From Eubacteriales bacterium (lineage in GTDB: Bacteria > Bacillota > Clostridia > Oscillospirales > CAG-272), in NCBI GenBank assembly GCA_045128275.1, contig JBGVRH010000059.1, positions 13,226 to 77,225 of the forward strand: a stretch of DNA of 64,000 nucleotides. The letters are read 5' to 3'. Positions 15,401 to 27,393 of the stretch are shown here, piece after piece. A program made the translations under genes and the position numbers. Position 1 is the stretch's first letter. Each line of letters begins with the position of its first letter. Below the pieces are notes generated by a model. It worked only from the letters and a program-made list of their open reading frames with translations. It did not search any database and was not told where the DNA came from.

Positions 15401-16843
15401 TTAATACTGACGGCCCCAAACAACCAGGTGCTTGGCGGGCTTACCGCAGCAAGCGCAGACGTCGGAGGGCTTTTCGTGCTCGCCGAAGGGGATGCAGCGG
15501 GACTTCACACCGCCGGTCTCATCCTTGATCTGCTCCTCGCAGGCGGTCTCACCGCACCACATAGCCTTGATGTAGCCGGGCTTGTTGGCGGCGATCTCCA
15601 AAAACTCCTCGTGGTTGTGAGCGATGTGGGTCTTCTCGGCCAGGTTCTTCTCGCAGCGGGAAACCAGCTCGTTGTGCACCTGATCCAGCATAGCCTGCAC
15701 CTCGGCCTCCACGTTGTCCAGAGACACGAAGCTCTTCTCGCGGGTCACGCGGCTGACCAGCACGCAGGAGTTGTTCTCGATATCGCGGGGGCCGATCTCC
15801 AGACGGACGGGCACGCCCTTCATCTCATACTGGCTGAACTTCCAGCCGGCGGAGTTGTCGCTGTCATCCAGCTTGACGCGGATACCGGCGGCGGCGAGAC
15901 GATCCTTGATGGCATTGGCATTCTCCAGCACGCCGGGCTTATGCTGGGCGGCGGGGATGATGACCACCTGGATGGGGGCGATGCGGGGAGGCAGGATCAG
16001 ACCATTGTCGTCACCGTGAGCCATGATGATGGCACCGATCATACGGGTGGACACGCCCCAAGAGGTCTGATGGGGGTGCTTGACGGTGTTGTCGCGGTCG
16101 GTGAAGGTGATGTCGAAGGCCTCGGCAAATCCGGTGCCGAAGTAGTGGGAGGTACCGCCCTGGAGCGCGACACCGTTGTGCATCATGGGCTCGATGGTGT
16201 AGGTCTCCACGGCACCCGCGAACTTCTCCTTCTCGGTCTTCTGACCCGTGATGGCGGGGATAGCCAGGGAGTCGCGGTAGAAGTCCTCGTAGACCTTCAG
16301 CATCTGAATGGTCTCGGCGCGGGCCTCGTCCTCGGTGGCGTGCATGGTGTGACCCTCCTGCCAGAGGAATTCCGAGGTGCGGAGGAAGGGACGGGTGGTC
16401 TTCTCCCAGCGGACCACGTTGCACCACTGGTTGTACAGCTTGGGCAGGTCGCGGTAGGAGTGGATGATGTCCTTGTAATGCTCACAGAACAGGGTCTCGG
16501 AGGTGGGGCGCACGATGAGGCGCTCGGAGAGGGTGTTCTGACCGCCGATGGTGACCACGGCGCACTCGGGAGCGAAGCCCTCCACGTGATCCTTCTCCTT
16601 CTGGAGCAGGCTCTCGGGGATGAACATGGGCATATAGACGTTCTCATGACCCAGAGCCTTGAAGCGGGCGTCCAGATCCTTCTGGATGTTCTCCCAGATG
16701 GCGTAGCCATAGGGGCGGATGACCATACAGCCCTTCACGCCGGAGTAGTCCACCAGCTCGGCCTTCTTGACCACGTCGGTGTACCACTGGGCGAAATCTA
16801 CGTCCATGGAGGTGATTTGTTCTACGAATTTATCCTTTGCCAT
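15401..16843 (-). CDS. proS: prolyl-tRNA synthetase, archaeal/eukaryote-like type
   Basis: [25 protein letters not shown]...[14 protein letters not shown]...; C-terminal Zn-binding tail ending ...WGRQY; 480 aa. Confidence 0.9.
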
Positions 16844-16885: not shown

Positions 16886-16914
16886 ATTATACCGCATAAG
16901 GAGGAATTTGTCAA
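16886..16914 (-). promoter_or_regulatory. sigma-A promoter of proS
   Basis: Minus strand TTGACA, 17 nt spacer, TATAAT. Confidence 0.65.
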
Positions 16915-16937
16915 GGGGGATGGGGGATTTTTTGCGA

Positions 16938-16976
16938 AAAAGAGGGTGTCTCCCAAGAAAAGAGACACCCAAAAAA
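16938..16976 (-). terminator. intrinsic terminator after cassette 1
   Basis: GGGTGTCTC...GAGACACCC with flanking T runs, directly after the TAG stop at 16977. Confidence 0.7.
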
Positions 16977-19109
16977 CTATTTGTTGAGAAATAGAATGCC
17001 ATCGGTACAGGATATCCCTGATGAACCTATCCCGCCAAAGCAGCCGTCCCCCTTTTCGATGGCCTCCCATTCGGCCTTCGTACCATCGAACCGCGCGTTG
17101 ACACTACTGTTCGCAAAGCACTGCTCACCCAGATAAGAAACCGATTTGGGAATACGGATATCCAACGATGTTGCGTTATTCATATCCATCCAAGAAAAGG
17201 CTAAATGTCCAATATGCGTGATACCTTCAGGGAGAATTACACTATTCAACAAAGGACATTTCAAGAACAACCCTTCCGCAATCCGGGTCATACCCGCGGG
17301 CAATTCAGCGGATAACAGATTGCTACAGCCCGTGAACGCGTACGCGCCCACGTTGGTTATCCCTTCGGGGAGGCAGATCGCGGTCAGGCCGTGGCAAAGC
17401 CCAAAAGCGTACTCTTCAATTGTTGTCATTCCGACACGCAACGGGAGATCGGTTAGGGCAGAGCATTGATAGAACGCATAGGCTCCTACGGTCGTTACCG
17501 CATCCGGCAGATGAACGGCACGAAGGGAGGTACAACCGTAAAAGAAACGATCGGGAATACGTGTTATGGTGTCGGAGAAGGTGAAGGAGGTCAGTTGGGT
17601 ATTATCCTCAAAGGCTCCCCCCACCACAATGCACACATCCTTGTGAAGGCCGGCTGTGGTTACATCCTTACGGCCAAATGCGAGGATAGCGTACGGGTTC
17701 TCTCCAATTGCCAGATAGTAACCCCCGTCATACTCGGTATAAGAAAGAGAGGAGCACCCGCGGAAGGCGTGGTAGCCAATATGGGTCAATCCGTCAGAAA
17801 GAGATAGTTCGGAAAGAGAGGAACACTCCGTGAAGGCCTCGGGACCGATGTGGGTCAAGCCGGCGGTGTTCTGTACCGCGGCCAGTTGCGTACAGTCTGC
17901 GAAGGCCATAGATTCAATTTTCGTTACACTGTAGGGCAGACGAAGTTCCTTCAGAGCGGTGTGGGCGAATGCCGTGGAACCGATCGTGGTCACCGAATCA
18001 GGGAGTGTGATCGCGGCGAGAGGAGTGTTTACTGCGAAGCACGCGGGGATAGTCGGGAGTTGGATTCCCTCCCCGAAGGTGATCTCGGTCAGGGTGGTCA
18101 CGCCCTCGAAGGCGTTTTGACCAATCTCGGTCACGGATGCGGGAATGTGTATTTTGGTGATCCTGCGGCAATAGGCAAAGGCACTTTTTCCGATGGAGGT
18201 AAGACCGTCAGGCAGGGCAAAGCCTTCGGGCAAATTGCATTCCGAAAAAGCCATCTCGCCGATCGATGTCAGCTTTTCGGGCCATACGAGGGAATCAAAG
18301 CTGCCGGAGAAGGCGTTCTTTCCGATGGCAATGACCAGATCCCCCTCTGGCGAGTAGTTGGGAATCACCATATCTCCCCGTACCCGTCCCGCGTCCTTGA
18401 CACAGCAGGTGCCGTCACCGTAGGAGGTGAACTCCATGCCCGTCATGCTTTCACCGCACACAGAGCAGGAACGGCCGTCAAAGGTATGCAAGCCCGCAGG
18501 CATATCCTCGTCCTCGGTTTTACCGCAAAGGGAGCATTCACGGGTGCGAACACCTGTCTCCGTGCAGGTGGGCACCGCGGCAAATTGCCAATTACCGAAA
18601 GTGTGTGCACAGGATTCGGGATCGGGCTTGGTTTCGGTCTCTGTTTCGCTTTCGGACTCGGTGTCGCTTCCGCTCTCGGCGGCGGTCTCACTTTCGGATT
18701 CACTGTCGGTCTCGGGTTTGCTTTCGGTCTCGCGTTCACCTTCGTCGGTCATAGCATCTGTGGTGGTACTCTCCTCCGTTTCAAAGGAGGTCACGTCTCC
18801 CGATTCCACAGGCGGCAGATCCCCGCCCTTACCGAAGAAGAACACCCCCGCGGCCACACCCGCGGCCACAACTACGCCCGCCGCCAGGGCGATCCAACCG
18901 CCCTTGGCGACCCACGCCCCAAAGCCCGTCTTAACGGTGGTCTCGGTGTGGGACAACGAGTATAAGGTAGACGGATCCACAGCTGCGCCGCTCGCCGCGC
19001 CCACGGCTCCCGCCGCGCCCACAGCCACAAGCCCCAGCTTCGCGCCCACTTCGGTGATGTACTCGTCACGAATGCCGTTCATGGCTTCCAAAATGATCTC
19101 TCTGCTCAT
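16977..19109 (-). CDS. cassette 1 partner protein: putative anti-sigma/sensor membrane protein with Cys-rich region and BspA-type leucine-rich repeats, 710 aa
   Basis: N-terminus [20 protein letters not shown], a Gly/Ala-rich hydrophobic segment and a TM helix, an acidic E/S/T linker, a CxxC-rich stretch, then about 23-residue repeats of the form IPxSVTxIGxxAFxxCxxLxxI. Start overlaps the sigma gene stop by 4 nt. Confidence 0.8.
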
Positions 19110-19648
19110 ACCCGATACCCCCTTTCCGCAAGGTACGCCCGTAGTTTCTCGCGGGTCTTGCTGAGCCGCTTATAGACCGTCTTGGGTGCCAGCTTCACGG
19201 CCTCCGCCAGCTCCTCCACGGGATAGGAGAACCAGTAGCGTCCCATAAAGATCACGCGGTCGCTCTCCTCCAGGTCGGCCAGAAAGCCGTTGAGCAGCTC
19301 GGCCAGCTCGCTTGCATCCTCCATGGAGGCGGGGATGCAGTTCTCCAGCTCGTCCAGGGGAAGGGTCATGTCCCGATCCCGCCGTTCTCTTCGCAGATCG
19401 CGGAGGCGATTGAGGGACAGGTTGCGGGCGATGCGGCAGACAAAGGCGCAGAGGGAGTCGGGCCTCGTGGGGGGGATGGTGTTCCAGGTCTTCAGGTAGG
19501 TGTCGTTGACGCACTCCTCGGCGTCGGGGCGGCTTTGCAGGATGTTCATGGACACCTGCATACAGGCTTTGCCGTAGCTCTTGTCGGTCTCGGCGATGGC
19601 CTGCTCGTTGCGGTCAAAATACAGAGCAATGATATCTTGGTCGTTCAT
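19106..19648 (-). CDS. ECF-type sigma-70 family sigma factor, cassette 1, 180 aa
   Basis: Region 2 (...DAEECVNDTYLKTW...) and region 4 (...TVYKRLSKTREKLRAYL) are present. Length and two-domain layout are typical of group 4 sigmas. Confidence 0.85.
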   Translation of the reverse strand: MNDQDIIALYFDRNEQAIAETDKSYGKACMQVSMNILQSRPDAEECVNDTYLKTWNTIPPTRPDSLCAFVCRIARNLSLNRLRDLRRERRDRDMTLPLDELENCIPASMEDASELAELLNGFLADLEESDRVIFMGRYWFSYPVEELAEAVKLAPKTVYKRLSKTREKLRAYLAERGYRV

Positions 19649-19764
19649 GTTTACCTCCTTGATGGGATCTCTGTACTCTATATGACACCGTTCCCTGTCT
19701 TTTTTCTCCCGTTTTTGCAGAAAAAAACAAAGTTTTTCGGTAAATGCCGTTCGTATTCCCTTAT

Positions 19765-19793
19765 ATCATACGGCGTGGCGGAGGATTTGTCAA
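19765..19793 (-). promoter_or_regulatory. sigma-A type promoter of cassette 1
   Basis: Minus strand TTGACA, 17 nt spacer, TATGAT. Confidence 0.6.
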
Positions 19794-19824
19794 GGGGATG
19801 GGGGATATTTTGCGAAAAAGGGGA

Positions 19825-19855
19825 CAAAAAAGGCCACCGCGCGGGGCGGTGGCCT
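19825..19855 (-). terminator. intrinsic terminator after cassette 2
   Basis: Minus strand AGGCCACCGCCCCGCGCGGTGGCCTTTTTT. Confidence 0.75.
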
Positions 19856-19862
19856 GTAGGGA

Positions 19863-20831
19863 TCAGCTCTCGGGGTCGGGCTGATTATAGCTGTTGAAAA
19901 TGGTAAACGGAAAATCGGGGATGGAATCCGCGGGGGTGTTAATGGCCTCCTCGCCGTCCACGTAGCGGTAGAGGATCGTATACTCGCAGGAGCCAAGGTC
20001 ATTATAAGCATCCCGAATGTCCTTGACACGGTCGAGCATGGCTTCGTTGTACCGATACTGCGCCAGGGTCACGGTCTTTTCCGGATTCCCCGTAAAGTGG
20101 CAGGTTCTGGTATTGAGGTCGGGGTTGAAGAAGACATTCCCCGCTTTGTCAAATCGGAGGTGATACCCCTCCATCATGACCGTGATCTCCTCCCCCTCGC
20201 CGGTCAGCAGATCCCCCGTGACCACTCTTTCATACATATAGATGAAGCCGTACCGGGTATCGGTTTTAAAGGCAACGATCTGGATGTTGGCCTCGCTGTT
20301 TTTGGGAGAGGCAAACGTGAGAACGGAGCGAAGCCCCGAGGAGCCGTTCACCAGAAATTCCACCGTCTTGCACCCATTATTTCCCGAGTCGGTGATGGAG
20401 ACGTAGCTGGTGGTATCGTCGGCACTCGTCAAGGGAAATTGGAAGTAGCTGAGATCGGGGGCTTCGGTCTCCTCCTCGGTCTCGGACTCGTTGGAGGCGG
20501 TCTCCGTTGTCTCGATCCCCTGGGGGAAGGAGGGCCATTCAAAGCCGTCGGAGCCCAAAAGGAACGCTCCCACCGCGATTCCCGCGGCGGCCACGGCACC
20601 CGCTACCAGCGCGATCCAGCCGCCCTTGGCGACCCACGCCCCAAAGCCCGTCTTGACAGCGGCCTCGGTGCCGGACAGGGAGTATAGGGTAGACGGATCC
20701 ACAGCTGCGCCGCTCGCCGCGCCCACAGCACCCGCCGCGCCCACAGCCAAAAGCCCCAGCCGTGTGCCTGCCTCGGTGATGTATTCGTCACGGATGCCGT
20801 TCAAGGCCTCCTGAATGATCTCTCTGCTCAT
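19863..20831 (-). CDS. cassette 2 partner protein: same N-terminal module, unrelated C-terminal domain of unknown family (about 190 aa), 322 aa total
   Basis: The N-terminal 95 aa are nearly identical to cassette 1 ([20 protein letters not shown]...[14 protein letters not shown]...). The C-terminal part has no LRR periodicity. Confidence 0.8.
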   Translation of the reverse strand: MSREIIQEALNGIRDEYITEAGTRLGLLAVGAAGAVGAASGAAVDPSTLYSLSGTEAAVKTGFGAWVAKGGWIALVAGAVAAAGIAVGAFLLGSDGFEWPSFPQGIETTETASNESETEEETEAPDLSYFQFPLTSADDTTSYVSITDSGNNGCKTVEFLVNGSSGLRSVLTFASPKNSEANIQIVAFKTDTRYGFIYMYERVVTGDLLTGEGEEITVMMEGYHLRFDKAGNVFFNPDLNTRTCHFTGNPEKTVTLAQYRYNEAMLDRVKDIRDAYNDLGSCEYTILYRYVDGEEAINTPADSIPDFPFTIFNSYNQPDPES

Positions 20832-21370
20832 ACCCGATACCCCCTTTCCGCAAGGTATGCCCGTAGCTTCTCACGGGTCTTGTGGAGCCGCATATACACC
20901 GCCTTGTCGGTCAGTCCCATCTGTGCGGCCAGGTCGTCGATGGCGTAGGAATACCAGTACCGTCCCATGAAGAGCACGCGGTTGGTCTCGTCCAGACTCT
21001 CTAAAAAGCTATTGAGCAGGGAAGCAAGCTCCCCAGCGTCCTCCATTGCGGCGGGGATGCAGGCCTCCAGCTCCTCAAAGGACACCGTCAGCCCTTGGTT
21101 GCGCTTCTCACGGCGCAGGTCGCGGAGGCGGTTGAGGGACAGGTTGCGGGCGATGCGGCACACAAAGGCGCACAGGGAGCCCGGCTTGGTGGGGGGAATG
21201 GAATTCCAGGTCTTGAGATAGGTGTCACTCACGCACTCCTCCGCGTCGGGACGGCTGTCCAGTATGTTCATGGACACCTGCATACAGACCTTGCCGTAGC
21301 TCTTGTCGGTCTCGGCGATGGCCTGCTCGTTGCGGGCGAAGTACAGGTCGATGATGTCTTGATCGTTCAT
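20828..21370 (-). CDS. ECF-type sigma factor, cassette 2, 180 aa
   Basis: Paralog of 19106..19648 with the same length. Confidence 0.85.
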   Translation of the reverse strand: MNDQDIIDLYFARNEQAIAETDKSYGKVCMQVSMNILDSRPDAEECVSDTYLKTWNSIPPTKPGSLCAFVCRIARNLSLNRLRDLRREKRNQGLTVSFEELEACIPAAMEDAGELASLLNSFLESLDETNRVLFMGRYWYSYAIDDLAAQMGLTDKAVYMRLHKTREKLRAYLAERGYRV

Positions 21371-21482
21371 GATTTCCTCCTTGCTTGGGATATGGTACCT
21401 ATTATGACACCGTTTTCTCGGATTTTTTTCTTGTTTTCGGAAAATATTTCAAAAAATTGTTTTTTTACGGGTGGCTACCTAT

Positions 21483-21511
21483 ATCATACAGGGAAAACGG
21501 GGGTGTGTCAA
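21483..21511 (-). promoter_or_regulatory. sigma-A type promoter of cassette 2
   Basis: Minus strand TTGACA, 17 nt spacer, TATGAT. Confidence 0.6.
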
Positions 21512-21535
21512 GGGGGAGGGGGATTTTTGTGAAGA

Positions 21536-21560
21536 AAAAGGAGCGGCCGAAGGCCGCTCC
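21536..21560 (-). terminator. intrinsic terminator after cassette 3
   Basis: Minus strand GGAGCGGCCTTCGGCCGCTCCTTTTT. Confidence 0.75.
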
Positions 21561-21567
21561 CAAAAGA

Positions 21568-23148
21568 TCAAGGAACGTAATTGTAATGAAAGGTGGCATT
21601 GGATAAGGTGTTGTTGAACTGACCGATGCGGATCCTTCTCCACTGTTTCTCAGAGCCGGCGTAGTAGATGTCCTTTACCCGATAAGCGTAAAATGCACTG
21701 TCGCCAATGAAATCTAAGCTGGTGGGGATCGTGATGGCCTTCATGTAGAAGCAATCCTCAAACGCACCGTTTGCGATCCCGATGGTCCCTTCGCGGCAAA
21801 CCACCTCGGCGACCGATTCATCACACGCCACGATCCAATTCCCTACGTAGGTGACTCCGCCTTCTTGGGCTAAGCCGGTACAGCCCTCAAATGAATTCGC
21901 TCCAATGTGGGTGACACTGTCGGGAATGGTCATGGAGGTGAGGGCCGAGCAGTCTTTGAACGCTCCGTAGTCAATATCCTTTAGACCGCCGGTGACGGTG
22001 ACAGAGGTCAGAGAGGAGCAATTTTTGAATGCGTTCTCGCCAATGGATGTGACCCCTTCGGGAATGACAACGGAGGTCAAGTCGGAGCAGTTCAAAAACG
22101 CATTTTCCCGAATGGCGGGGAAGTCACCGGCAAGGGTAATGGTGGTCAGAGAAATGCAATCCTCGAACGCAGAAGCGCCAAGCTCGGTCACGCTGTCGGG
22201 AATGACCACCGAAGTCAGGTATCGGCAATTTGAGAACGCATGATCTCCGATCACGACCACACCGTCGGGGATCTCGATGGAGGTCAATTTATAACAGCCT
22301 TCAAAAGCATTTTCCAAGATCCCCTTGGTGCCTTCCTTCCACGTGACTTCACTCAGATACAAGTCGCAGTCCACGACCCAATTCCCCACGTAATACAAGC
22401 CTTTTTTCCTTCTTCGGATCTTGGGGGATTCGTCAAACGCCTTATGGCCAACGCTGACCACGCTGTCGGGAACTACGATGGAGGTCAGATCGCAGCAGAA
22501 GAAGAATGCGTATTCTTCAATGTGTGTGACGGTATCGGGAATCACCACCGAGGTGATGGCCCGACCACTGAATGCCTCCCTGCCAATGGCGGTCACGATA
22601 TCCCCGTCGGGAGATACGGGTGGGATCACAATATCCATGTTCGGCCAGGGGTCGTTACTTTCTGCGACATAGCAGGTCCCGTCGCCGTTGGAGACGTATT
22701 TCAGGAACTCAGAGGGGGCAAGGGTCTCGGATTCAATCTCGGGTTCGGTTTCAGTTTCGGTTTCAGCTTCGGTTTCAGTTTCGGTTTCGGTTTCCGACTC
22801 GGGCTTGCTCTCGCCCTCGCCCTCCTCGAATCGGCTCTGCTCCTGCTCGGCGGAAGTCTCGTCCTCCGTCCCCACAGGCGGCGTATCCCCGCCGTTGCCC
22901 AGCAGGAACGCTCCCACAGCCACCCCCGCGGCTACCACCACGCCCGCTACCAGCGCGATCCAACCGCCCTTAGCCAGCCACGCGCCAAAGCCTGTCTTGG
23001 CGGCGGTGCCGCTCCCCGCGGCAGAAAGGGAATAGAGAGGCGCGCCCGCCGCGCCGCCCAGCAGGGACAGGGGCAGAGCCTCGGTCACGAACTCGTCGGG
23101 GAGCTTCCCCATGATCTCAAAAAGCTGTTCGCCCGTCAGTCGGCTCAT
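21568..23148 (-). CDS. cassette 3 partner protein: related N-terminal module, acidic E/T linker and BspA-type LRR domain, 526 aa
   Basis: Start taken as MSRLTGEQLFEIMGKLPDEFVTE, whose ATG at 23148 overlaps the sigma stop by 4 nt as in cassettes 1 and 2. Contains repeats IPDSVTxIGxxAFxxCxxLTSV. Confidence 0.8.
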   Translation of the reverse strand: MSRLTGEQLFEIMGKLPDEFVTEALPLSLLGGAAGAPLYSLSAAGSGTAAKTGFGAWLAKGGWIALVAGVVVAAGVAVGAFLLGNGGDTPPVGTEDETSAEQEQSRFEEGEGESKPESETETETETEAETETETEPEIESETLAPSEFLKYVSNGDGTCYVAESNDPWPNMDIVIPPVSPDGDIVTAIGREAFSGRAITSVVIPDTVTHIEEYAFFFCCDLTSIVVPDSVVSVGHKAFDESPKIRRRKKGLYYVGNWVVDCDLYLSEVTWKEGTKGILENAFEGCYKLTSIEIPDGVVVIGDHAFSNCRYLTSVVIPDSVTELGASAFEDCISLTTITLAGDFPAIRENAFLNCSDLTSVVIPEGVTSIGENAFKNCSSLTSVTVTGGLKDIDYGAFKDCSALTSMTIPDSVTHIGANSFEGCTGLAQEGGVTYVGNWIVACDESVAEVVCREGTIGIANGAFEDCFYMKAITIPTSLDFIGDSAFYAYRVKDIYYAGSEKQWRRIRIGQFNNTLSNATFHYNYVP

Positions 23149-23687
23149 ACCGTGTACCCCCCTTCGGTCAGAAAGTCTCGGAGCTTGTTGCGGGTCTTTT
23201 GGAGGCGCAGAGCCACGGCGTTGGGGGTCAGCTCCCAATGGGTAGCCAGATCCTTCACCGACATACCGTGCCAGTAGCGACCTACGAAGAGCCTACGCTC
23301 GGCCTCGTCCAGCCCCCGCAGGAATTCCGCGAGAAGCTCGGGGAGGATCTCGGCGTGGGACTCGTCCACGGGGATGCAGTCCTCCAGCTCCTCGAAGGAC
23401 ACCGTCAGCTCGCGGTTGCGGCGGTCACGGCGCAGGTCGCGGAGACGGTTGAGGGACAGATTCCGCGCGATACGGCAGACGAAGGCGCACAGGGAGTTGG
23501 GCTTGGTGGGCGGGATGGAGTTCCACGTTTTCAGATAGGTATCGTTGACGCACTCCTCGGCGTCGGGATGGCTTTGCAGGATGTTCATGGATACCTGCAT
23601 ACAGGCCTTGCCGTAGCTCTTGTCGGTCTCGGCGATTGCCTGCTCGTTGCGAGCAAAATACAGAGCGATGATCTCTTGGTCGTTCAT
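23145..23687 (-). CDS. ECF-type sigma factor, cassette 3, 180 aa
   Basis: Paralog of the two sigma genes above. Region 2 is conserved and region 4 has diverged. Confidence 0.85.
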   Translation of the reverse strand: MNDQEIIALYFARNEQAIAETDKSYGKACMQVSMNILQSHPDAEECVNDTYLKTWNSIPPTKPNSLCAFVCRIARNLSLNRLRDLRRDRRNRELTVSFEELEDCIPVDESHAEILPELLAEFLRGLDEAERRLFVGRYWHGMSVKDLATHWELTPNAVALRLQKTRNKLRDFLTEGGYTV

Positions 23688-23811
23688 AGGTTCCTCCTTT
23701 TTGGGTTTGAAATGTCTCTGTACTTATATTGACACTCTTTGGTGTCGGTTCATGTCCGATATTTGCTTCTTTTTTGAAAAAAAGAAAAAATCTTGGTGTG
23801 CGGCTACCCAT

Positions 23812-23840
23812 ATCATACAGGGTGGGAGAACGCTTGTCAA
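23812..23840 (-). promoter_or_regulatory. sigma-A type promoter of cassette 3
   Basis: Minus strand TTGACA, 17 nt spacer, TATGAT. Confidence 0.6.
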
Positions 23841-23983: not shown

Positions 23984-25207
23984 ATGAAATCCGTCCGCAC
24001 CATATACAAGATGGGCATGGGCCCCTCCTCCTCCCACACCATGGGCCCCGCCTTTGCCGCCCGTACCTTCAAGGACACCCACCCCGAGGCCGACCGCTTC
24101 ACCGTCATCCTCTACGGCTCTCTGGCCAAGACGGGCAAGGGTCACGGCACTGACCGCGCCATCACCGATACCCTCGCCCCCATCCCCGCCGAGATCGTGT
24201 TCAATATGGACGATGAGATCGCCGCCACCCTCCCCCACCCCAATACGCTGGATTTCATCGGCTATTCGGGAGACATCGAGATCGGACGGATGCGTTTCCT
24301 GTCCATCGGCGGCGGTGAAGTGCGAATGGACGGGGAAGAGAGCCGCTTTGCCCTGCCTCCCGAGCTGTACAAGGAGGAGAGCTTCACCGAGATCGCGGAT
24401 TTGTGTAAGTCCCGGGGTATCCGCCTCTCGGACTACGTCTTCGAGCATGAGGACGCGGATTTCCCCGCCTTCCTGCTGGACGTGTGGCACACCATGACCG
24501 CCGCCATCCGCGAGGGCCTGACCCATACGGGCATCCTCCCCGGCGGCCTGGAGGTGGAGCGCAAGGCCCAAAGATTGTACAACCAGCGCCACATCGACGA
24601 GTCCCCCCAGACCCGCGAGAACCGCCTGGTCTGCGCCTATGCCTTCGCCGTCAGCGAGCAGAATGCCGACAACGGGGTCATCGTCACCGCCCCCACCTGC
24701 GGCTCCTGCGGAGTCCTCCCCGCCGTCCTGAGGTATATGCAGGACAAGAACGGCTTTTCCGACCGCGACGTTGTCCGCGCCCTAGCCGTGGCGGGTCTGA
24801 TCGGTGACCTGGTGGCCACCAACGCCTCCGTCAGCGGCGCGGAATGCGGCTGTCAGGCCGAGGTAGGCACCGCCTGCTCCATGGCCGCCGCCGCCCTCTG
24901 CGAGCTGTTCGAGATGGGCATCGACCAGATCGAGTACGCCGCCGAGATGTCCCTGGAGCATCACCTGGGACTGACCTGCGACCCCGTCTGCGGGCTTGTG
25001 CAGATCCCCTGCATCGAGCGCAACGCCGTGGCCGCCATGCGCGCCATCAACGCGCTCTCCCTGGCCAACTTCCTGTCGGGAAGCCGTAAGATCTCCTTCG
25101 ATCTGGTGGTGGAGACCATGTACCGCACCGGCCTCGACCTGTCCCACCTGTACAGAGAGACCTCCGAGGGCGGGTTGGCAAAGCTGTATCGGCATCCGGG
25201 GAGTTAA
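23984..25207 (+). CDS. sdaA: L-serine ammonia-lyase (iron-sulfur dependent, single chain)
   Basis: MKSVRTIYKMGMGPSSSHTMGPAFAA...YGSLAKTGKGHGTD...; Cys-containing alpha domain (TAPTCGSCGV). Confidence 0.9.
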   Translation: MKSVRTIYKMGMGPSSSHTMGPAFAARTFKDTHPEADRFTVILYGSLAKTGKGHGTDRAITDTLAPIPAEIVFNMDDEIAATLPHPNTLDFIGYSGDIEIGRMRFLSIGGGEVRMDGEESRFALPPELYKEESFTEIADLCKSRGIRLSDYVFEHEDADFPAFLLDVWHTMTAAIREGLTHTGILPGGLEVERKAQRLYNQRHIDESPQTRENRLVCAYAFAVSEQNADNGVIVTAPTCGSCGVLPAVLRYMQDKNGFSDRDVVRALAVAGLIGDLVATNASVSGAECGCQAEVGTACSMAAAALCELFEMGIDQIEYAAEMSLEHHLGLTCDPVCGLVQIPCIERNAVAAMRAINALSLANFLSGSRKISFDLVVETMYRTGLDLSHLYRETSEGGLAKLYRHPGS

Positions 25208-25272: not shown

Positions 25273-25821
25273 ATGCGTTTTAAGATCTTCAAAAGAACAT
25301 TTGTCGTTTTCATTATCTTGATGGCAATTTTTTTGGTTGGCTGTCAAAAAACACAGGAATACCACATACACGCCCAGCAATGTGAGTGGATTTTTGGTCA
25401 AACTCCGAAACAACTGATGAGATCGAAGCATGATTGTATGGACACGGTCGGAGATTTCCGAAGAAAATCATATGTCGATAAAAACGGCCATTTATGCCTT
25501 GTGCTGACCGAATCTCAAGCAGAGGCCATGAAAGAGTGGTTGGTGGAATTTTCCGAATTGGATAACAGATCGGATGTAGAAGTGAGCGAGGATCTGTCAA
25601 GTGTAACAGTGTACTTTTCTCCTAAATTGTTAGAAGAAGGCGGCTCCGAATTGGATTCCTTGGTACGGGTGGTAAATACCGTAGCGGGAAAAATCATGTT
25701 GAAACAAAGGCTTGATGGAGTTCCACCAGAGGAGGTTTCATTCCTATACACAGAAAGGAATATTGAAACGGGAGAGGTTATATATACTGAGGTCTATAAG
25801 CCGATATTGGTTGATCCATAA
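25273..25821 (+). CDS. hypothetical lipoprotein on a low-GC islet
   Basis: Signal peptide with lipobox (FLVGC). GC content is visibly lower than that of the neighbouring genes. I recognise no family. Confidence 0.65.
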   Translation: MRFKIFKRTFVVFIILMAIFLVGCQKTQEYHIHAQQCEWIFGQTPKQLMRSKHDCMDTVGDFRRKSYVDKNGHLCLVLTESQAEAMKEWLVEFSELDNRSDVEVSEDLSSVTVYFSPKLLEEGGSELDSLVRVVNTVAGKIMLKQRLDGVPPEEVSFLYTERNIETGEVIYTEVYKPILVDP

Positions 25822-25828
25822 ATATTTG

Positions 25829-26081
25829 TTCAAATTGGGATTTGTCGGTCTGTCGGGCACGATGGCACGGCTGCCAATAACCCATTGTAGGGAGCGACGC
25901 CCTCGTCGCTCCTCAACCTGAAAATTGTCCTTTATCTATTGTCAGATATATGTTTTTGCCTGTACACCCAAAACATATTGGTGTGTGCTATGTGGCGGAG
26001 CGACGAGGGCGTCGCTCCCTACGTTGGGTTGTCAAATATCAAACAGTCGTGCCAAAACCCACCGACAAACCCAAATTTGAA
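25829..26081. repeat. MITE-like dispersed repeat, copy 4 (best-preserved TIRs)
   Basis: Left TIR TTCAAATTGGGATTTGTCGG (25829-25848); right TIR, reverse-complemented, TTCAAATTTGGGTTTGTCGG (26062-26081). The core holds two inverted hairpin units GGAGCGACG-CCCT-CGTCGCTCC. Confidence 0.7.
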
Positions 26082-26097
26082 ACATCAAGGAGCCTGT

Positions 26098-27393
26098 ATG
26101 TCTCTGCCAACTCATATCCAACAAACCTACACCGCCATCCTCCGCGAGGAGCTTGTCCCCGCCATGGGCTGTACCGAGCCCATCGCCATTGCCTACGCCG
26201 CTGCCATCCTCCGCCACGCCCTGGGGGCTGACCCCACTGCCCTGCGGGTGGAGCTGAGCGGAAACATCATCAAGAATGTCAAGTCCGTCATCGTCCCCGC
26301 CACCGACGGCATGCACGGCATCGAGGCCGCCGTGGCCGCGGGCATCGTGGCAGGCTGTCCCGATCGCAAGCTGGAGGTGCTGTGCGCCCTGAAGCCCGCC
26401 GATGCCGACCGCATCCGCGACTTTCTGAACACCACCACTCCCGCCGTCAGCGAGCTGGAGACCAAGCACCCCTTCGAGCTGGTCATGACGGGGGAGGCTA
26501 CCGTGGAGGGGCAAGCCGTGACCGTCACCGTCCATCTCATTGACCGCCACACCAACGTGGTATCCGTGGACAGAAACGGCCAAGACCTCACCGACCGCTA
26601 CCTCTACGGCGAGTCCCTCGTACATACTGAGCCCGCCGACCGCTCCCTCCTCAACGTGCAGGATATCATCACCTACGCCGAGGAGGTGGAGCTGGACGAG
26701 GTCAGACCCCTGCTGGAGCGGCAGATCGCCATGAATATGGCCATCGCCGAGGAGGGTCTGCGGTGCGAGTACGGCGCGTCCATCGGCCGTCTGCTCTACA
26801 ATGGCGGTCACAGCGACCTCCGCACCAAGGCCCGTGCCTACGCCGCCGCAGGGTCGGATGCCCGCATGAACGGCTGTGAGCTGCCCGTGTGCATCATCTC
26901 GGGGAGCGGCAATCAGGGCATGACCGCCTCTGTCCCCGTGGTGGTCTACGCCAAGGCTTGGCACACCGACAACGAGACCCTCCTCCGCGCCCTGCTGGTG
27001 TCCAACCTCATCACCGTCCACCAGAAGACGGGCATCGGCTGTCTCTCGGCCTACTGCGGTGCCATCAGCGCGGGATGCGGGTGCGGATGCGGCATCTGCT
27101 ACCTGGCAGGGGGGCGGTTCAACGAGATCGCCCACACCCTGGTCAACGCAGTGGCCATTCTGTCGGGCACCATCTGCGACGGAGCCAAGGCCTCCTGCGC
27201 CGCCAAGATCGCCATGGCGGTGGAGGCGGGCATCATGGGCTATGACATGATGCGCTCGGGCCGCCAGTTCTACGGCGGTGACGGCATCGTCACCAAGGGG
27301 GTGGAGAACACCATCCGCAACATCGGCCGATTGGCCCGCGACGGCATGAGCGAGACGGATCGGGAGATCATCCGCATCATGCTGGGGGAGTAA
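26098..27393 (+). CDS. UPF0597 / L-cysteine desulfidase-like (serine dehydratase alpha-like) protein
   Basis: MSLPTHIQQTYTAILREELVPAMGCTEPIAIAYAAA... resembles the YhaM/CyuA family. ATG at 26098 follows AAGGAG. The upstream part of ORF 25939.. runs across the repeat element and is rejected. Confidence 0.8.
   Translation: MSLPTHIQQTYTAILREELVPAMGCTEPIAIAYAAAILRHALGADPTALRVELSGNIIKNVKSVIVPATDGMHGIEAAVAAGIVAGCPDRKLEVLCALKPADADRIRDFLNTTTPAVSELETKHPFELVMTGEATVEGQAVTVTVHLIDRHTNVVSVDRNGQDLTDRYLYGESLVHTEPADRSLLNVQDIITYAEEVELDEVRPLLERQIAMNMAIAEEGLRCEYGASIGRLLYNGGHSDLRTKARAYAAAGSDARMNGCELPVCIISGSGNQGMTASVPVVVYAKAWHTDNETLLRALLVSNLITVHQKTGIGCLSAYCGAISAGCGCGCGICYLAGGRFNEIAHTLVNAVAILSGTICDGAKASCAAKIAMAVEAGIMGYDMMRSGRQFYGGDGIVTKGVENTIRNIGRLARDGMSETDREIIRIMLGE

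Follow-up and report, generated by a model that had tools for sequence, protein, structure and literature searches.

Tandem extracytoplasmic function sigma factor operons with candidate anti-sigma partners and exchangeable outer domains in a Eubacteriales genome

Organization of the cassette array

A 64,000-nucleotide (nt) stretch of contig JBGVRH010000059.1 from an uncultured gut Clostridia bacterium of the Eubacteriales, hereafter the window, carries three units of the same design on the minus strand at positions 16944-23840. Each unit, or cassette, consists of a sigma-70-type promoter, a leader, a gene for a 180-amino-acid (aa) extracytoplasmic function (ECF) sigma factor, an ATGA overlap of stop and start codons, the gene of a membrane partner and a terminator (Table 1). 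A sequence-only reading that preceded this analysis had claimed, for every cassette, a 180-aa ECF-type sigma gene with the 4-nt ATGA overlap, a TTGACA-17-TATGAT promoter, a leader of about 115 nt and a terminator of its own. All of these elements were recovered: the overlap is present in the three cassettes of the window, promoters and terminators were each located at three positions, and the leaders measure 112-124 nt. The overlap is also found in 19/19 other cassettes extracted from L001-L012 (related loci are designated L001-L016, and homologous proteins carry P-numbers). The extended promoter pattern CCCTTGACA-N17-TATRAT has seven matches in the window versus 0.02 expected. The true start of partner 3 is at 23148, and not that of the TTG-extended open reading frame (ORF) at 23238.

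The paralogous cassettes share DNA homology blocks of 330-880 nt, and the repetition is therefore not a chance match. Cassettes 1 and 2 have a common block of 880 nt, extending from the ECF-like box in the leader to the end of the transmembrane (TM) helix of the partner, at 81% identity, and cassette 3 has in common with them only the sigma-2 half and the segment encoding the juxtamembrane box and TM helix.

Table 1. Features of the cassette array, in window coordinates (LRR, leucine-rich repeat)
Feature	Position	Strand	Details
Cassette 3, sigma-70-type promoter	23812..23840	-	TTGACA-17-TATGAT
Cassette 3, candidate ECF-type autoregulatory promoter	23726..23757	-	GGACAT, 16 nt, GTGTCAATAT, ATG 48 nt on
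Sigma 3	23145..23687	-	180-aa ECF sigma factor
Partner 3	21568..23148	-	526 aa
Partner 3, parts		-	N-helix 1-27; TM ~64-84 (22897-22959); acidic linker; 'FLKYVSNGDGTCYV'; BspA LRR_5 ~21649-22581
Cassette 3, intrinsic terminator	21539..21561	-	
Cassette 2, sigma-70-type promoter	21483..21511	-	TTGACA-17-TATGAT, proS-type copy
Cassette 2, candidate ECF-type promoter	21401..21432	-	AAGAAA, 16 nt, GTGTCATAAT, ATG 40 nt on
Sigma 2	20828..21370	-	180-aa ECF sigma factor
Partner 2	19863..20831	-	322 aa
Partner 2, parts		-	N-module 1-95; short linker; 197-aa beta-rich domain (residues 126-322; 19866-20456)
Cassette 2, intrinsic terminator	19831..19855	-	
Cassette 1, sigma-70-type promoter	19765..19793	-	TTGACA-17-TATGAT, proS-type copy
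Cassette 1, candidate ECF-type promoter	19679..19710	-	GGGAGA, 16 nt, GTGTCATATA, ATG 40 nt on
Sigma 1	19106..19648	-	180-aa ECF sigma factor
Partner 1	16977..19109	-	710 aa
Partner 1, N-half		-	N-helix 1-28 (19026-19109); box and TM, residues 59-93 (18831-18935); acidic linker
Partner 1, C-half		-	Cys-rich segment 167-236 (18402-18611); ~18 BspA LRR units (~17040-18347)
Cassette 1, intrinsic terminator	16944..16970	-	
proS promoter	16886..16914	-	TTGACA-17-TATAAT, paralogous to cassette promoters; downstream edge of array hotspot

The sigma factors

All three sigma proteins match Sigma70_r2 (35.7-36.2 bits; Pfam cut-off 24), Sigma70_r4_2 (29-30.4 bits; Pfam cut-off 25.7) and TIGR02937 (68.5-75.4 bits; cut-off 42.9). 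A match to sigma region 3 was missing from all three in the family model scan, and their scores stay below the cut-offs of all NCBIfam subfamily and equivalog models. The proteins are ECF (group IV) members that these models assign to no named subfamily. Their nearest relative of solved structure is CnrH, at a weak E-value of 7e-7, followed by SigL, SigE and SigW. Sequence relatives number 2331 at E<=1e-10, and the best 120 of these 2331 share 66% identity or more.

The paralogues are 69-77% identical to each other, but unevenly so along their length. The sigma-2 half (codons 1-87) has 91-93% aa identity and a ratio of nonsynonymous to synonymous divergence (dN/dS) of 0.06-0.08, versus 47-63% identity and a dN/dS of 0.33-0.52 in the linker and sigma-4 half (codons 88-180). 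The recognition helix of sigma-4 occurs in the variants KRLSKTRE, MRLHKTRE and LRLQKTRN. Because dS is 0.57-0.94 throughout, the cassette copies must be old, and the identity of their sigma-2 halves results from purifying selection. Recent gene conversion as a source of this identity was ruled out (dS 0.57-0.68).

These values also bear on the possibility that the array arose as an artefact of assembly or consists of functionless duplicates in decay. Many of the database copies are indeed fragments on short contigs and one chimeric ORF (P0024, see below) exists, but the dS values and a dN/dS of 0.06-0.5, the intactness of all six ORFs and of the promoters, ribosome-binding sites and terminators, the identical three-cassette order on an independent metagenome contig (L013), and the occurrence of identical proteins in clusters of 2-60 members, some from several contigs, effectively refute it.

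The N-module of the partners and its topology

The three partners have an N-module of ~95 aa in common. It opens with a helix, predicted at residues 3-29, that carries the motif (N/G)(G/K)(I/L)(R/P)DE(Y/F)(I/V)TE. A stretch of Gly and Ala separates this helix from the box K(T/A)GFGAW(V/L)AKGGW, behind which come a hydrophobic helix rich in Gly, Ala and Val and a linker of acidic character, with a D/E/S/T content of 65%, 46% and 55%, respectively, in the three proteins. The N-terminal motif noticed in the sequence-only reading is thus present in all partners, although its earlier form was shifted by one residue; the Gly/Ala stretch, the TGFGAW(V/L)AKGGWIAL box with its TM helix and the acidic linker had been described correctly for all three.

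In a 19-residue scan, the segment after the box gives a summed apparent free energy of membrane insertion (dGapp) of -0.4 to -1.2 kcal/mol, and the Gly/Ala stretch one of +3.4 to +7.8 kcal/mol. The latter stretch varies in length, being shorter in partner 3 (~12 aa), and the distant relative P0042 has in its place a Lys/Arg-rich sequence directly ahead of the TM helix, which fits the positive-inside rule. Furthermore, homologues of the partner-2 domain (P0205, P0207-P0209; 36-50% identity) carry this domain behind classical lipoprotein signal peptides (MKKLILTLLLLLAVVCTAAACA...). On account of the hydropathy, the variability of the Gly/Ala stretch and these lipoprotein homologues, the C-terminus is placed outside, and the partners are predicted to be type-II single-pass proteins with ~60-70 cytoplasmic residues and the variable domain at the cell exterior. 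The same three lines of evidence rule out a two-TM topology with the C-terminus inside, and settle the choice between one and two hydrophobic segments, raised by the sequence-only reading, in favor of one.

Class I anti-sigma domains, such as those of RsiW, RseA and ChrR, are cytoplasmic four-helix bundles of ~80-90 aa that often contain HxxxCxxC. Such features are absent from the partners, which have a single predicted helix of ~27 aa and neither Cys nor His ahead of the TM helix. Models of zf-HC2, RskA and RseA_N gave no match in the partners even at E<=10, nor did RsgI_N among the Pfam models. The anti-sigma part is therefore short and lacks a zf-HC2 signature, as had been stated, and has no RskA or RsgI_N signature either, but its shortness alone is not unusual as had been supposed, given class II proteins such as CnrY and NepR. 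Short two-helix forms of class II anti-sigma domains are known (PMC6101532), and a single-pass protein encoded at position +1 is the commonest predicted anti-sigma arrangement (82 ECF groups; PMC7826278). The order of the partner genes, their ATGA coupling and the single TM helix match this latter pattern.

The N-helix motif is kept in distant cassettes with an altered box and TM helix, in the forms MKGQVAFEA..L.D.LI.EA and MTSRDIYIAMEGIDPRFILDA, and among the loci examined the N-module was found solely beside these sigma factors. Both observations argue against an explanation which we consider improbable, namely that the partner is not an anti-sigma factor but a membrane-anchored surface protein that is merely co-transcribed, the sigma factor being controlled transcriptionally or by an unlinked regulator and the N-module acting as a membrane-anchoring, sorting or export signal. 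Such a role would agree with the dissimilarity of the N-module to any anti-sigma domain, with an N-helix of only ~28 aa devoid of Cys and His, and with the better conservation of the juxtamembrane box and TM helix than of the N-helix. It would leave unexplained, however, why the 4-nt overlap is strictly kept in 22/22 cassettes and why an N-in orientation provides ~60 cytoplasmic residues that are needless for an anchor, and the two-helix class II domains show that short anti-sigma domains exist (PMC6101532).

Outer domains

Downstream of the acidic linker the partners are unrelated. In partner 1, six Cys (residues 167-218) and a further two (235-236) precede a region of ~18 units matching LRR_5 (PF13306) with an E-value of 9e-94 (310.5 bits; cut-off 27.7); the Cys-rich segment and leucine-rich repeats (LRRs) of the sequence-only reading are hence both present, with ~18 repeat units rather than the ~20 counted there. 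The shorter LRR domain reported for partner 3 was likewise retrieved by LRR_5 (E 2e-78; 260.7 bits; same cut-off), and the unrelated domain of partner 2, which had been put at ~190 aa, spans 197 aa without a match in Pfam or NCBIfam. An AF2 model of the latter, of moderate confidence, is beta-rich with one long helix (predicted local distance difference test, pLDDT, 63-91), and a Foldseek search with this fold gave no match at E<=0.001 in PDB or BFVD. Within the partner 3 gene, five 52-nt direct repeats spaced at multiples of 69 nt (21890-22487) are the DNA trace of the 23-aa BspA LRR units. The guanine-plus-cytosine content at third codon positions (GC3) is 0.61-0.65 in the LRR-coding parts versus 0.77-0.82 in those encoding the sigma factors and the N-module.

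Outer domains of no fewer than seven kinds occur with the N-module, and most of them have no Pfam match. These are a Cys-rich segment with a long LRR, 'NGDGTCYV' with an LRR, the partner-2 domain, a 'FDVTASLAAIDRL' domain, a large 'LSLFSAEQG' domain with a short LRR, and two kinds found exclusively among the more distant partners of MKGQ/MTGQ type (e.g. L001_235 and L003_2421). A defense-system reading was rejected, since PADLOC gave only weak low-complexity matches (E 2e-4 and 5e-4) in the TM and linker region.

At L015 (4159-6816) a sigma gene (185 aa) and a partner gene (415 aa) are followed, 40 nt on, by the gene of a 271-aa lipoprotein that carries the partner-2 domain of the window at 39% identity, with proS next; no terminator was noticed in the 91 bases inspected. 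The partner-2 domain thus occurs in two settings, joined to the anti-sigma module or encoded on its own by the third gene of an operon, and by the logic of gene fusions this may hint at a lipoprotein that acts in concert with the anti-sigma factor.

The same domain as a free lipoprotein also looks like cargo, which would suit the main alternative explanation, one that we regard as rather unlikely: that the cassettes are self-contained display circuits without a regulon beyond their own operon, in which the outer domain is the output and not the sensor. The N-module would tether the sigma factor, and loss, shedding or cleavage of the surface protein would free it to replace that same protein, so that the array would amount to a set of differing surface proteins, every one of them under feedback control of its own. 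Proteins with BspA-type LRR domains are classically surface adhesins, the domain itself is generally classified with adhesins, and NCBIfam matches to HupY/LrrG-type adhesins, far below cut-off, were obtained. The lower GC3 of the LRR parts and the fast turnover of outer domains between close relatives (see below) point the same way. The evidence opposing this explanation concerns promoters and is considered with them.

Distribution, hotspot and domain shuffling

An exhaustive profile search with the N-module through 1.84 billion representative proteins returned 33 proteins at E<=1e-3, 28 of them at E<=1e-10, with lengths of 59-2284 aa, the full-length partner-like ones having ~190-770 aa. An earlier word-indexed search had yielded 14 fragments only, its candidate list being filled by Gly/Ala low-complexity words. 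A scan of 185,579 species, with one genome each, identified eight loci, all in metagenome-assembled genomes (MAGs) of uncultured Clostridia/Eubacteriales; those with a source in their title stem from roe deer, water deer and goat gut. In public records the proteins are named 'leucine-rich repeat domain-containing protein' or 'hypothetical protein'.

The cassettes are located directly upstream of proS in the relatives too. Their number per site varies from one (L009) to two (L002, L003, L004), three (the window and L013) and four (L001); L010 holds at least two complete cassettes and a partial one at the contig end, and L016 four in tandem on a contig that ends before any downstream gene. The sequence CGCAAAAAATCCCCCATCCCCC upstream of the proS promoter, which itself ends 42 nt before the proS ATG, is shared with the internal cassette promoters (window 16886-16940; L001-L005, L009, L010), and the cassettes therefore appear to carry copies of the proS promoter. 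To judge from these sequences, the array probably grows and shrinks by unequal exchange.

In the window, the array is bordered by proS (15401-16843) and an L-serine dehydratase gene (23984-25207, plus strand), and farther away by genes for FtsW/RodA, MetH and MTHFR. These flanks consist of housekeeping genes, in agreement with the earlier remark that no obvious regulon genes lie beside the cassettes. Between the serine-dehydratase-family genes at 23984-25207 and 25939-27393, a 182-aa ORF (25273-25821, plus strand) with a lipoprotein-like signal peptide (…FLVGC) and no Pfam match has a GC3 of 0.44 versus ~0.8 in its neighbors, and is probably foreign DNA.

Two of the related loci have neighborhoods of their own. 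In L016 (1-12594), the four partners of 341, 560, 409 and 670 aa, two of them with LRRs, lie downstream of RuvX and a 249-aa protein. An SPP1-type phage portal gene is situated ~2.5 kb upstream of the first of these cassettes, and the hotspot of this genome may thus adjoin a prophage. L009 (2727-7349) encodes a more distant ECF sigma factor (184 aa) and a partner of 511 aa with the N-terminus MTSRDIYIAMEGIDPRFILDAAP followed by Lys/Pro-rich sequence, and then an HAD hydrolase and a GH123-family glycosidase, the latter of which possibly belongs to the regulon. A much wider family of Clostridia anti-sigma factors may be recognizable by the N-helix motif of this partner (hydrophobic-x-x-A-hydrophobic-x-x-I-x-x-x-hydrophobic-I-x-E/D-A).

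Among 21 cassettes, the relatedness of the outer domains is untied to that of the sigma-4 halves (Spearman 0.10) or of the N-helices (0.26). Some pairs of cassettes have sigma-4 halves that are 94-100% identical and unrelated outer domains, and in others outer domains of 90% identity go with N-helices of only 48%. The most direct comparison is that between the window and L001, which are 97.9% identical over cassette 1 and proS. The order in the window is [sigma3-N3][LRR][sigma2-N2][partner-2 domain], versus [sigma3-N3][partner-2 domain][sigma2-N2][a different domain] in L001, and the switch point falls inside the TM-coding box. The comparison shows a recent re-assortment of outer domains among the sigma/N-module types by recombination in the TM-coding box. 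The swapping of large C-terminal domains claimed in the sequence-only reading was thereby borne out, the partner-2 domain of L001 being located behind a sigma/N-module of cassette-3 type.

A candidate ECF promoter in the leader

The upstream regions of the 21 cassettes, from the window and the related loci, were aligned. The TTGACA-17-TATGAT promoter is absent from several of them. A box, (C/G)GTGTCATAAT followed by GTACAGAGA, is found in nearly all, 34-81 nt before the ATG, and is also kept in cassettes without the sigma-A promoter. The pattern GTGTCA[AT]4 has 15 matches on both strands of 150 kb, 12 of which sit 40-51 nt 5' of a sigma ATG. The bipartite element has the consensus ggaAAaA, ~18 nt, GTCATAAT, and the GTC-anchored non-redundant consensus reads aTTt..aaAAtcggaAAaAaa.cgacA.aaAAcgGT|GTCATAATagGTACAg, its -35-like part being a purine-rich, GGAAA-like hexamer ~18 nt 5' of GTC. 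Four divergent cassettes (L003, L008, L009, L015) show exactly GGAAAG-N16-GTGTCATAAT, and the corresponding hexamers of the window are GGGAGA, AAGAAA and GGACAT in cassettes 1, 2 and 3, respectively.

ECF-type promoters typically have a GGAAC/AAC-like -35 and a GTC/CGT-like -10 element, and the leader element resembles those of the GGAA(C/T)-N17-18-GT(T/C) type. The invariant -10-like box parallels the invariant sigma-2 half, and the variable -35-like hexamer the variable sigma-4 half with its recognition helix. The leader box is most likely an autoregulatory ECF promoter placed downstream of the constitutive sigma-A promoter. A riboswitch or structured RNA in the leader was ruled out, as no Rfam match was obtained at E<=1 and folding z-scores range from -1.0 to +0.9.

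The thirteenth match to GTGTCA[AT]4 is the box of L007, which is located 260 nt, and not ~40 nt, from the sigma ATG (846-1106), with ~220 nt of unrelated GC-rich sequence between the GTGTCATAAT box and the ATG; this leader possibly carries a small insertion.

The promoter box was not seen at any gene other than the cassettes in the window or in ~90 kb of related loci, which make up a small fraction of a genome. This result would be expected if the outer domain were the output of a private circuit, but it is weak evidence because of the small fraction of the genome searched. The divergence of the sigma-4 halves and the matching differences of the -35-like hexamers rather suggest distinct promoter sets, and with a strong constitutive sigma-A promoter at each cassette a private sigma factor is not obviously needed for expression of the surface protein.

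A proposed sigma/anti-sigma receptor system

With moderate confidence, and on the basis of the gene and protein sequences, we interpret the array as three paralogous two-gene operons, in each of which an ECF sigma factor is translationally coupled to its own single-pass anti-sigma factor and receptor, oriented N-in and C-out. The cytoplasmic helix of ~28 aa would bind the sigma factor and be followed by a flexible Gly/Ala spacer of variable length, the juxtamembrane box (K-T/A-GFGAW-x-AKGGW), the Gly/Ala-rich TM helix and an acidic stalk. The stalk would present an interchangeable outer domain, either a BspA-type LRR solenoid, to which a Cys-rich module may be added, or the 197-aa beta-rich domain. 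The copy of the proS-type sigma-A promoter would provide basal expression and the ECF-type promoter in the leader positive autoregulation. Removal of the partner, most likely by regulated intramembrane proteolysis, may be triggered by a ligand or by damage at the outer domain, and the freed sigma factor would then transcribe its own operon and a regulon elsewhere.

Co-variation of the two proteins is consistent with this interpretation, as the identity of the N-helices tracks that of the sigma factors over the 21 cassettes (Spearman 0.76 for sigma-2 and 0.73 for sigma-4). Several observations nevertheless weigh against it. The co-variation could stem from DNA adjacency alone. The N-helices of cassettes 1 and 2 are 79% identical (22/28) versus 63% for the sigma-4 halves, which argues against a simple sigma-4-specific pairing code and makes cross-talk between pairs 1 and 2 possible. 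The N-module has no match in Pfam even at E<=10, and none in NCBIfam or PDB. The -35-like element is A-rich and of low information, and there is no second copy of the candidate promoter in the 64-kb window. Activation by proteolysis is proposed purely by analogy. Finally, an AF2 model of P0024, a natural chimera that combines the N-module with its cognate sigma-4, showed no confident docking, the pLDDT being 88-95 for sigma-4 and 34-41 for the N-helix; this model carries little weight in either direction, because sigma-2 is absent from the protein and the alignment had only 13 rows. With the same limits, the modeling result would also suit a partner that is not an anti-sigma factor.

P0024 itself is a metagenomic protein of 206 aa, in which a complete N-module (helix, box, TM helix and start of the linker) continues in frame into a sigma factor of cassette-2 type, represented by its linker and sigma-4 half. 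It is either an assembly chimera of adjacent cassettes or a genuine recombination product.

A wider and more tentative proposal is that the cassettes represent prokaryotic counterparts of LRR pattern-recognition receptors, with LRR ectodomains that a tethered sigma factor links directly to transcription. Their repertoire would be diversified by cassette recombination at the dedicated hotspot, with the TM-coding box as the crossover site at which ligand-binding outer domains are re-assorted onto a limited number of sigma/anti-sigma 'output' modules.

Relation to known systems

The closest parallel in overall logic is the SigI/RsgI system of Clostridium (Acetivibrio) thermocellum, which the published accounts (PMC6582324, PMC10328401, PMC12203970) describe as several paralogous, autoregulated operons with proteolytic activation. 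That family is defined by a SigI-C domain instead of sigma-4 in the sigma factor, and by RsgI_N and a conserved autoproteolytic outer domain in the anti-sigma factor. Common to both are a single-pass anti-sigma candidate with a conserved cytoplasmic N-part, interchangeable outer modules and several operons per genome. However, the sigma factors studied here are 180-aa ECF proteins with Sigma70_r4_2, unlike SigI with its SigI-C domain, and the partners lack RsgI_N and carry BspA LRR domains or folds of no known type, in contrast to the carbohydrate-binding (CBM), PA14 and glycoside hydrolase (GH) modules of RsgI. Also unlike SigI/RsgI, the cassettes are arranged in tandem at one hotspot. The resemblance noted in the sequence-only reading thus extends to the modular logic and not to membership in the family, considering the canonical sigma-4 and the missing RsgI_N.

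CnrY is a small single-pass membrane protein without a large outer domain and works with the periplasmic CnrX. The partners are similar to class II proteins (CnrY/CnrH, NepR) in their very short cytoplasmic part of one or two helices without a zinc motif (PMC6101532), and CnrH is the best solved-structure match to the sigma factors. Class II domains are short clamps of two helices that embrace sigma-2 and sigma-4; the N-module would be compatible with this in length, but no sequence similarity was found between it and CnrY or NepR.

The BspA-type LRR surface proteins resemble partners 1 and 3 in their strong LRR_5 matches. The partners differ in having a type-II anchor and a cytoplasmic end coupled to an ECF sigma factor, with neither signal peptide nor wall anchor on the LRR.

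Receptor-type anti-sigma factors such as Rsi24C of C. thermocellum, which has a GH5 module, and RsiV use a class I anti-sigma domain. For RsiV/SigV, binding of lysozyme to the outer domain of the anti-sigma factor is reported to lead to proteolysis and release of the sigma factor (PMC5014341). As in RsiV, the proposed receptor is the anti-sigma factor itself, known in the present case from genes alone, but RsiV and Rsi24C are single systems and the cassettes form shuffling arrays. Nothing relevant on an anti-sigma factor with a BspA or LRR ectodomain was found in the literature searched.

Significance

Pairs of ECF sigma and anti-sigma factors are a major route of bacterial signaling, and for most of them the signal is not known. 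In the present cassette family the sensing half appears to be exchanged as a module between near-identical genomes, with a visible junction and a fixed hotspot, and BspA-type LRRs stand where a receptor would have its ectodomain. Confirmation would make available a compact anti-sigma module of ~95 aa that lies outside all curated protein families, together with several paralogous sigma/anti-sigma pairs that may differ in -35 specificity. It would also supply defined ectodomains with which ligands could be screened in uncultured gut Clostridia. Should the more tentative receptor proposal also be true, a gut anaerobe could quickly change the assignment of host, dietary or microbial macromolecules to the transcriptional programs that they trigger.

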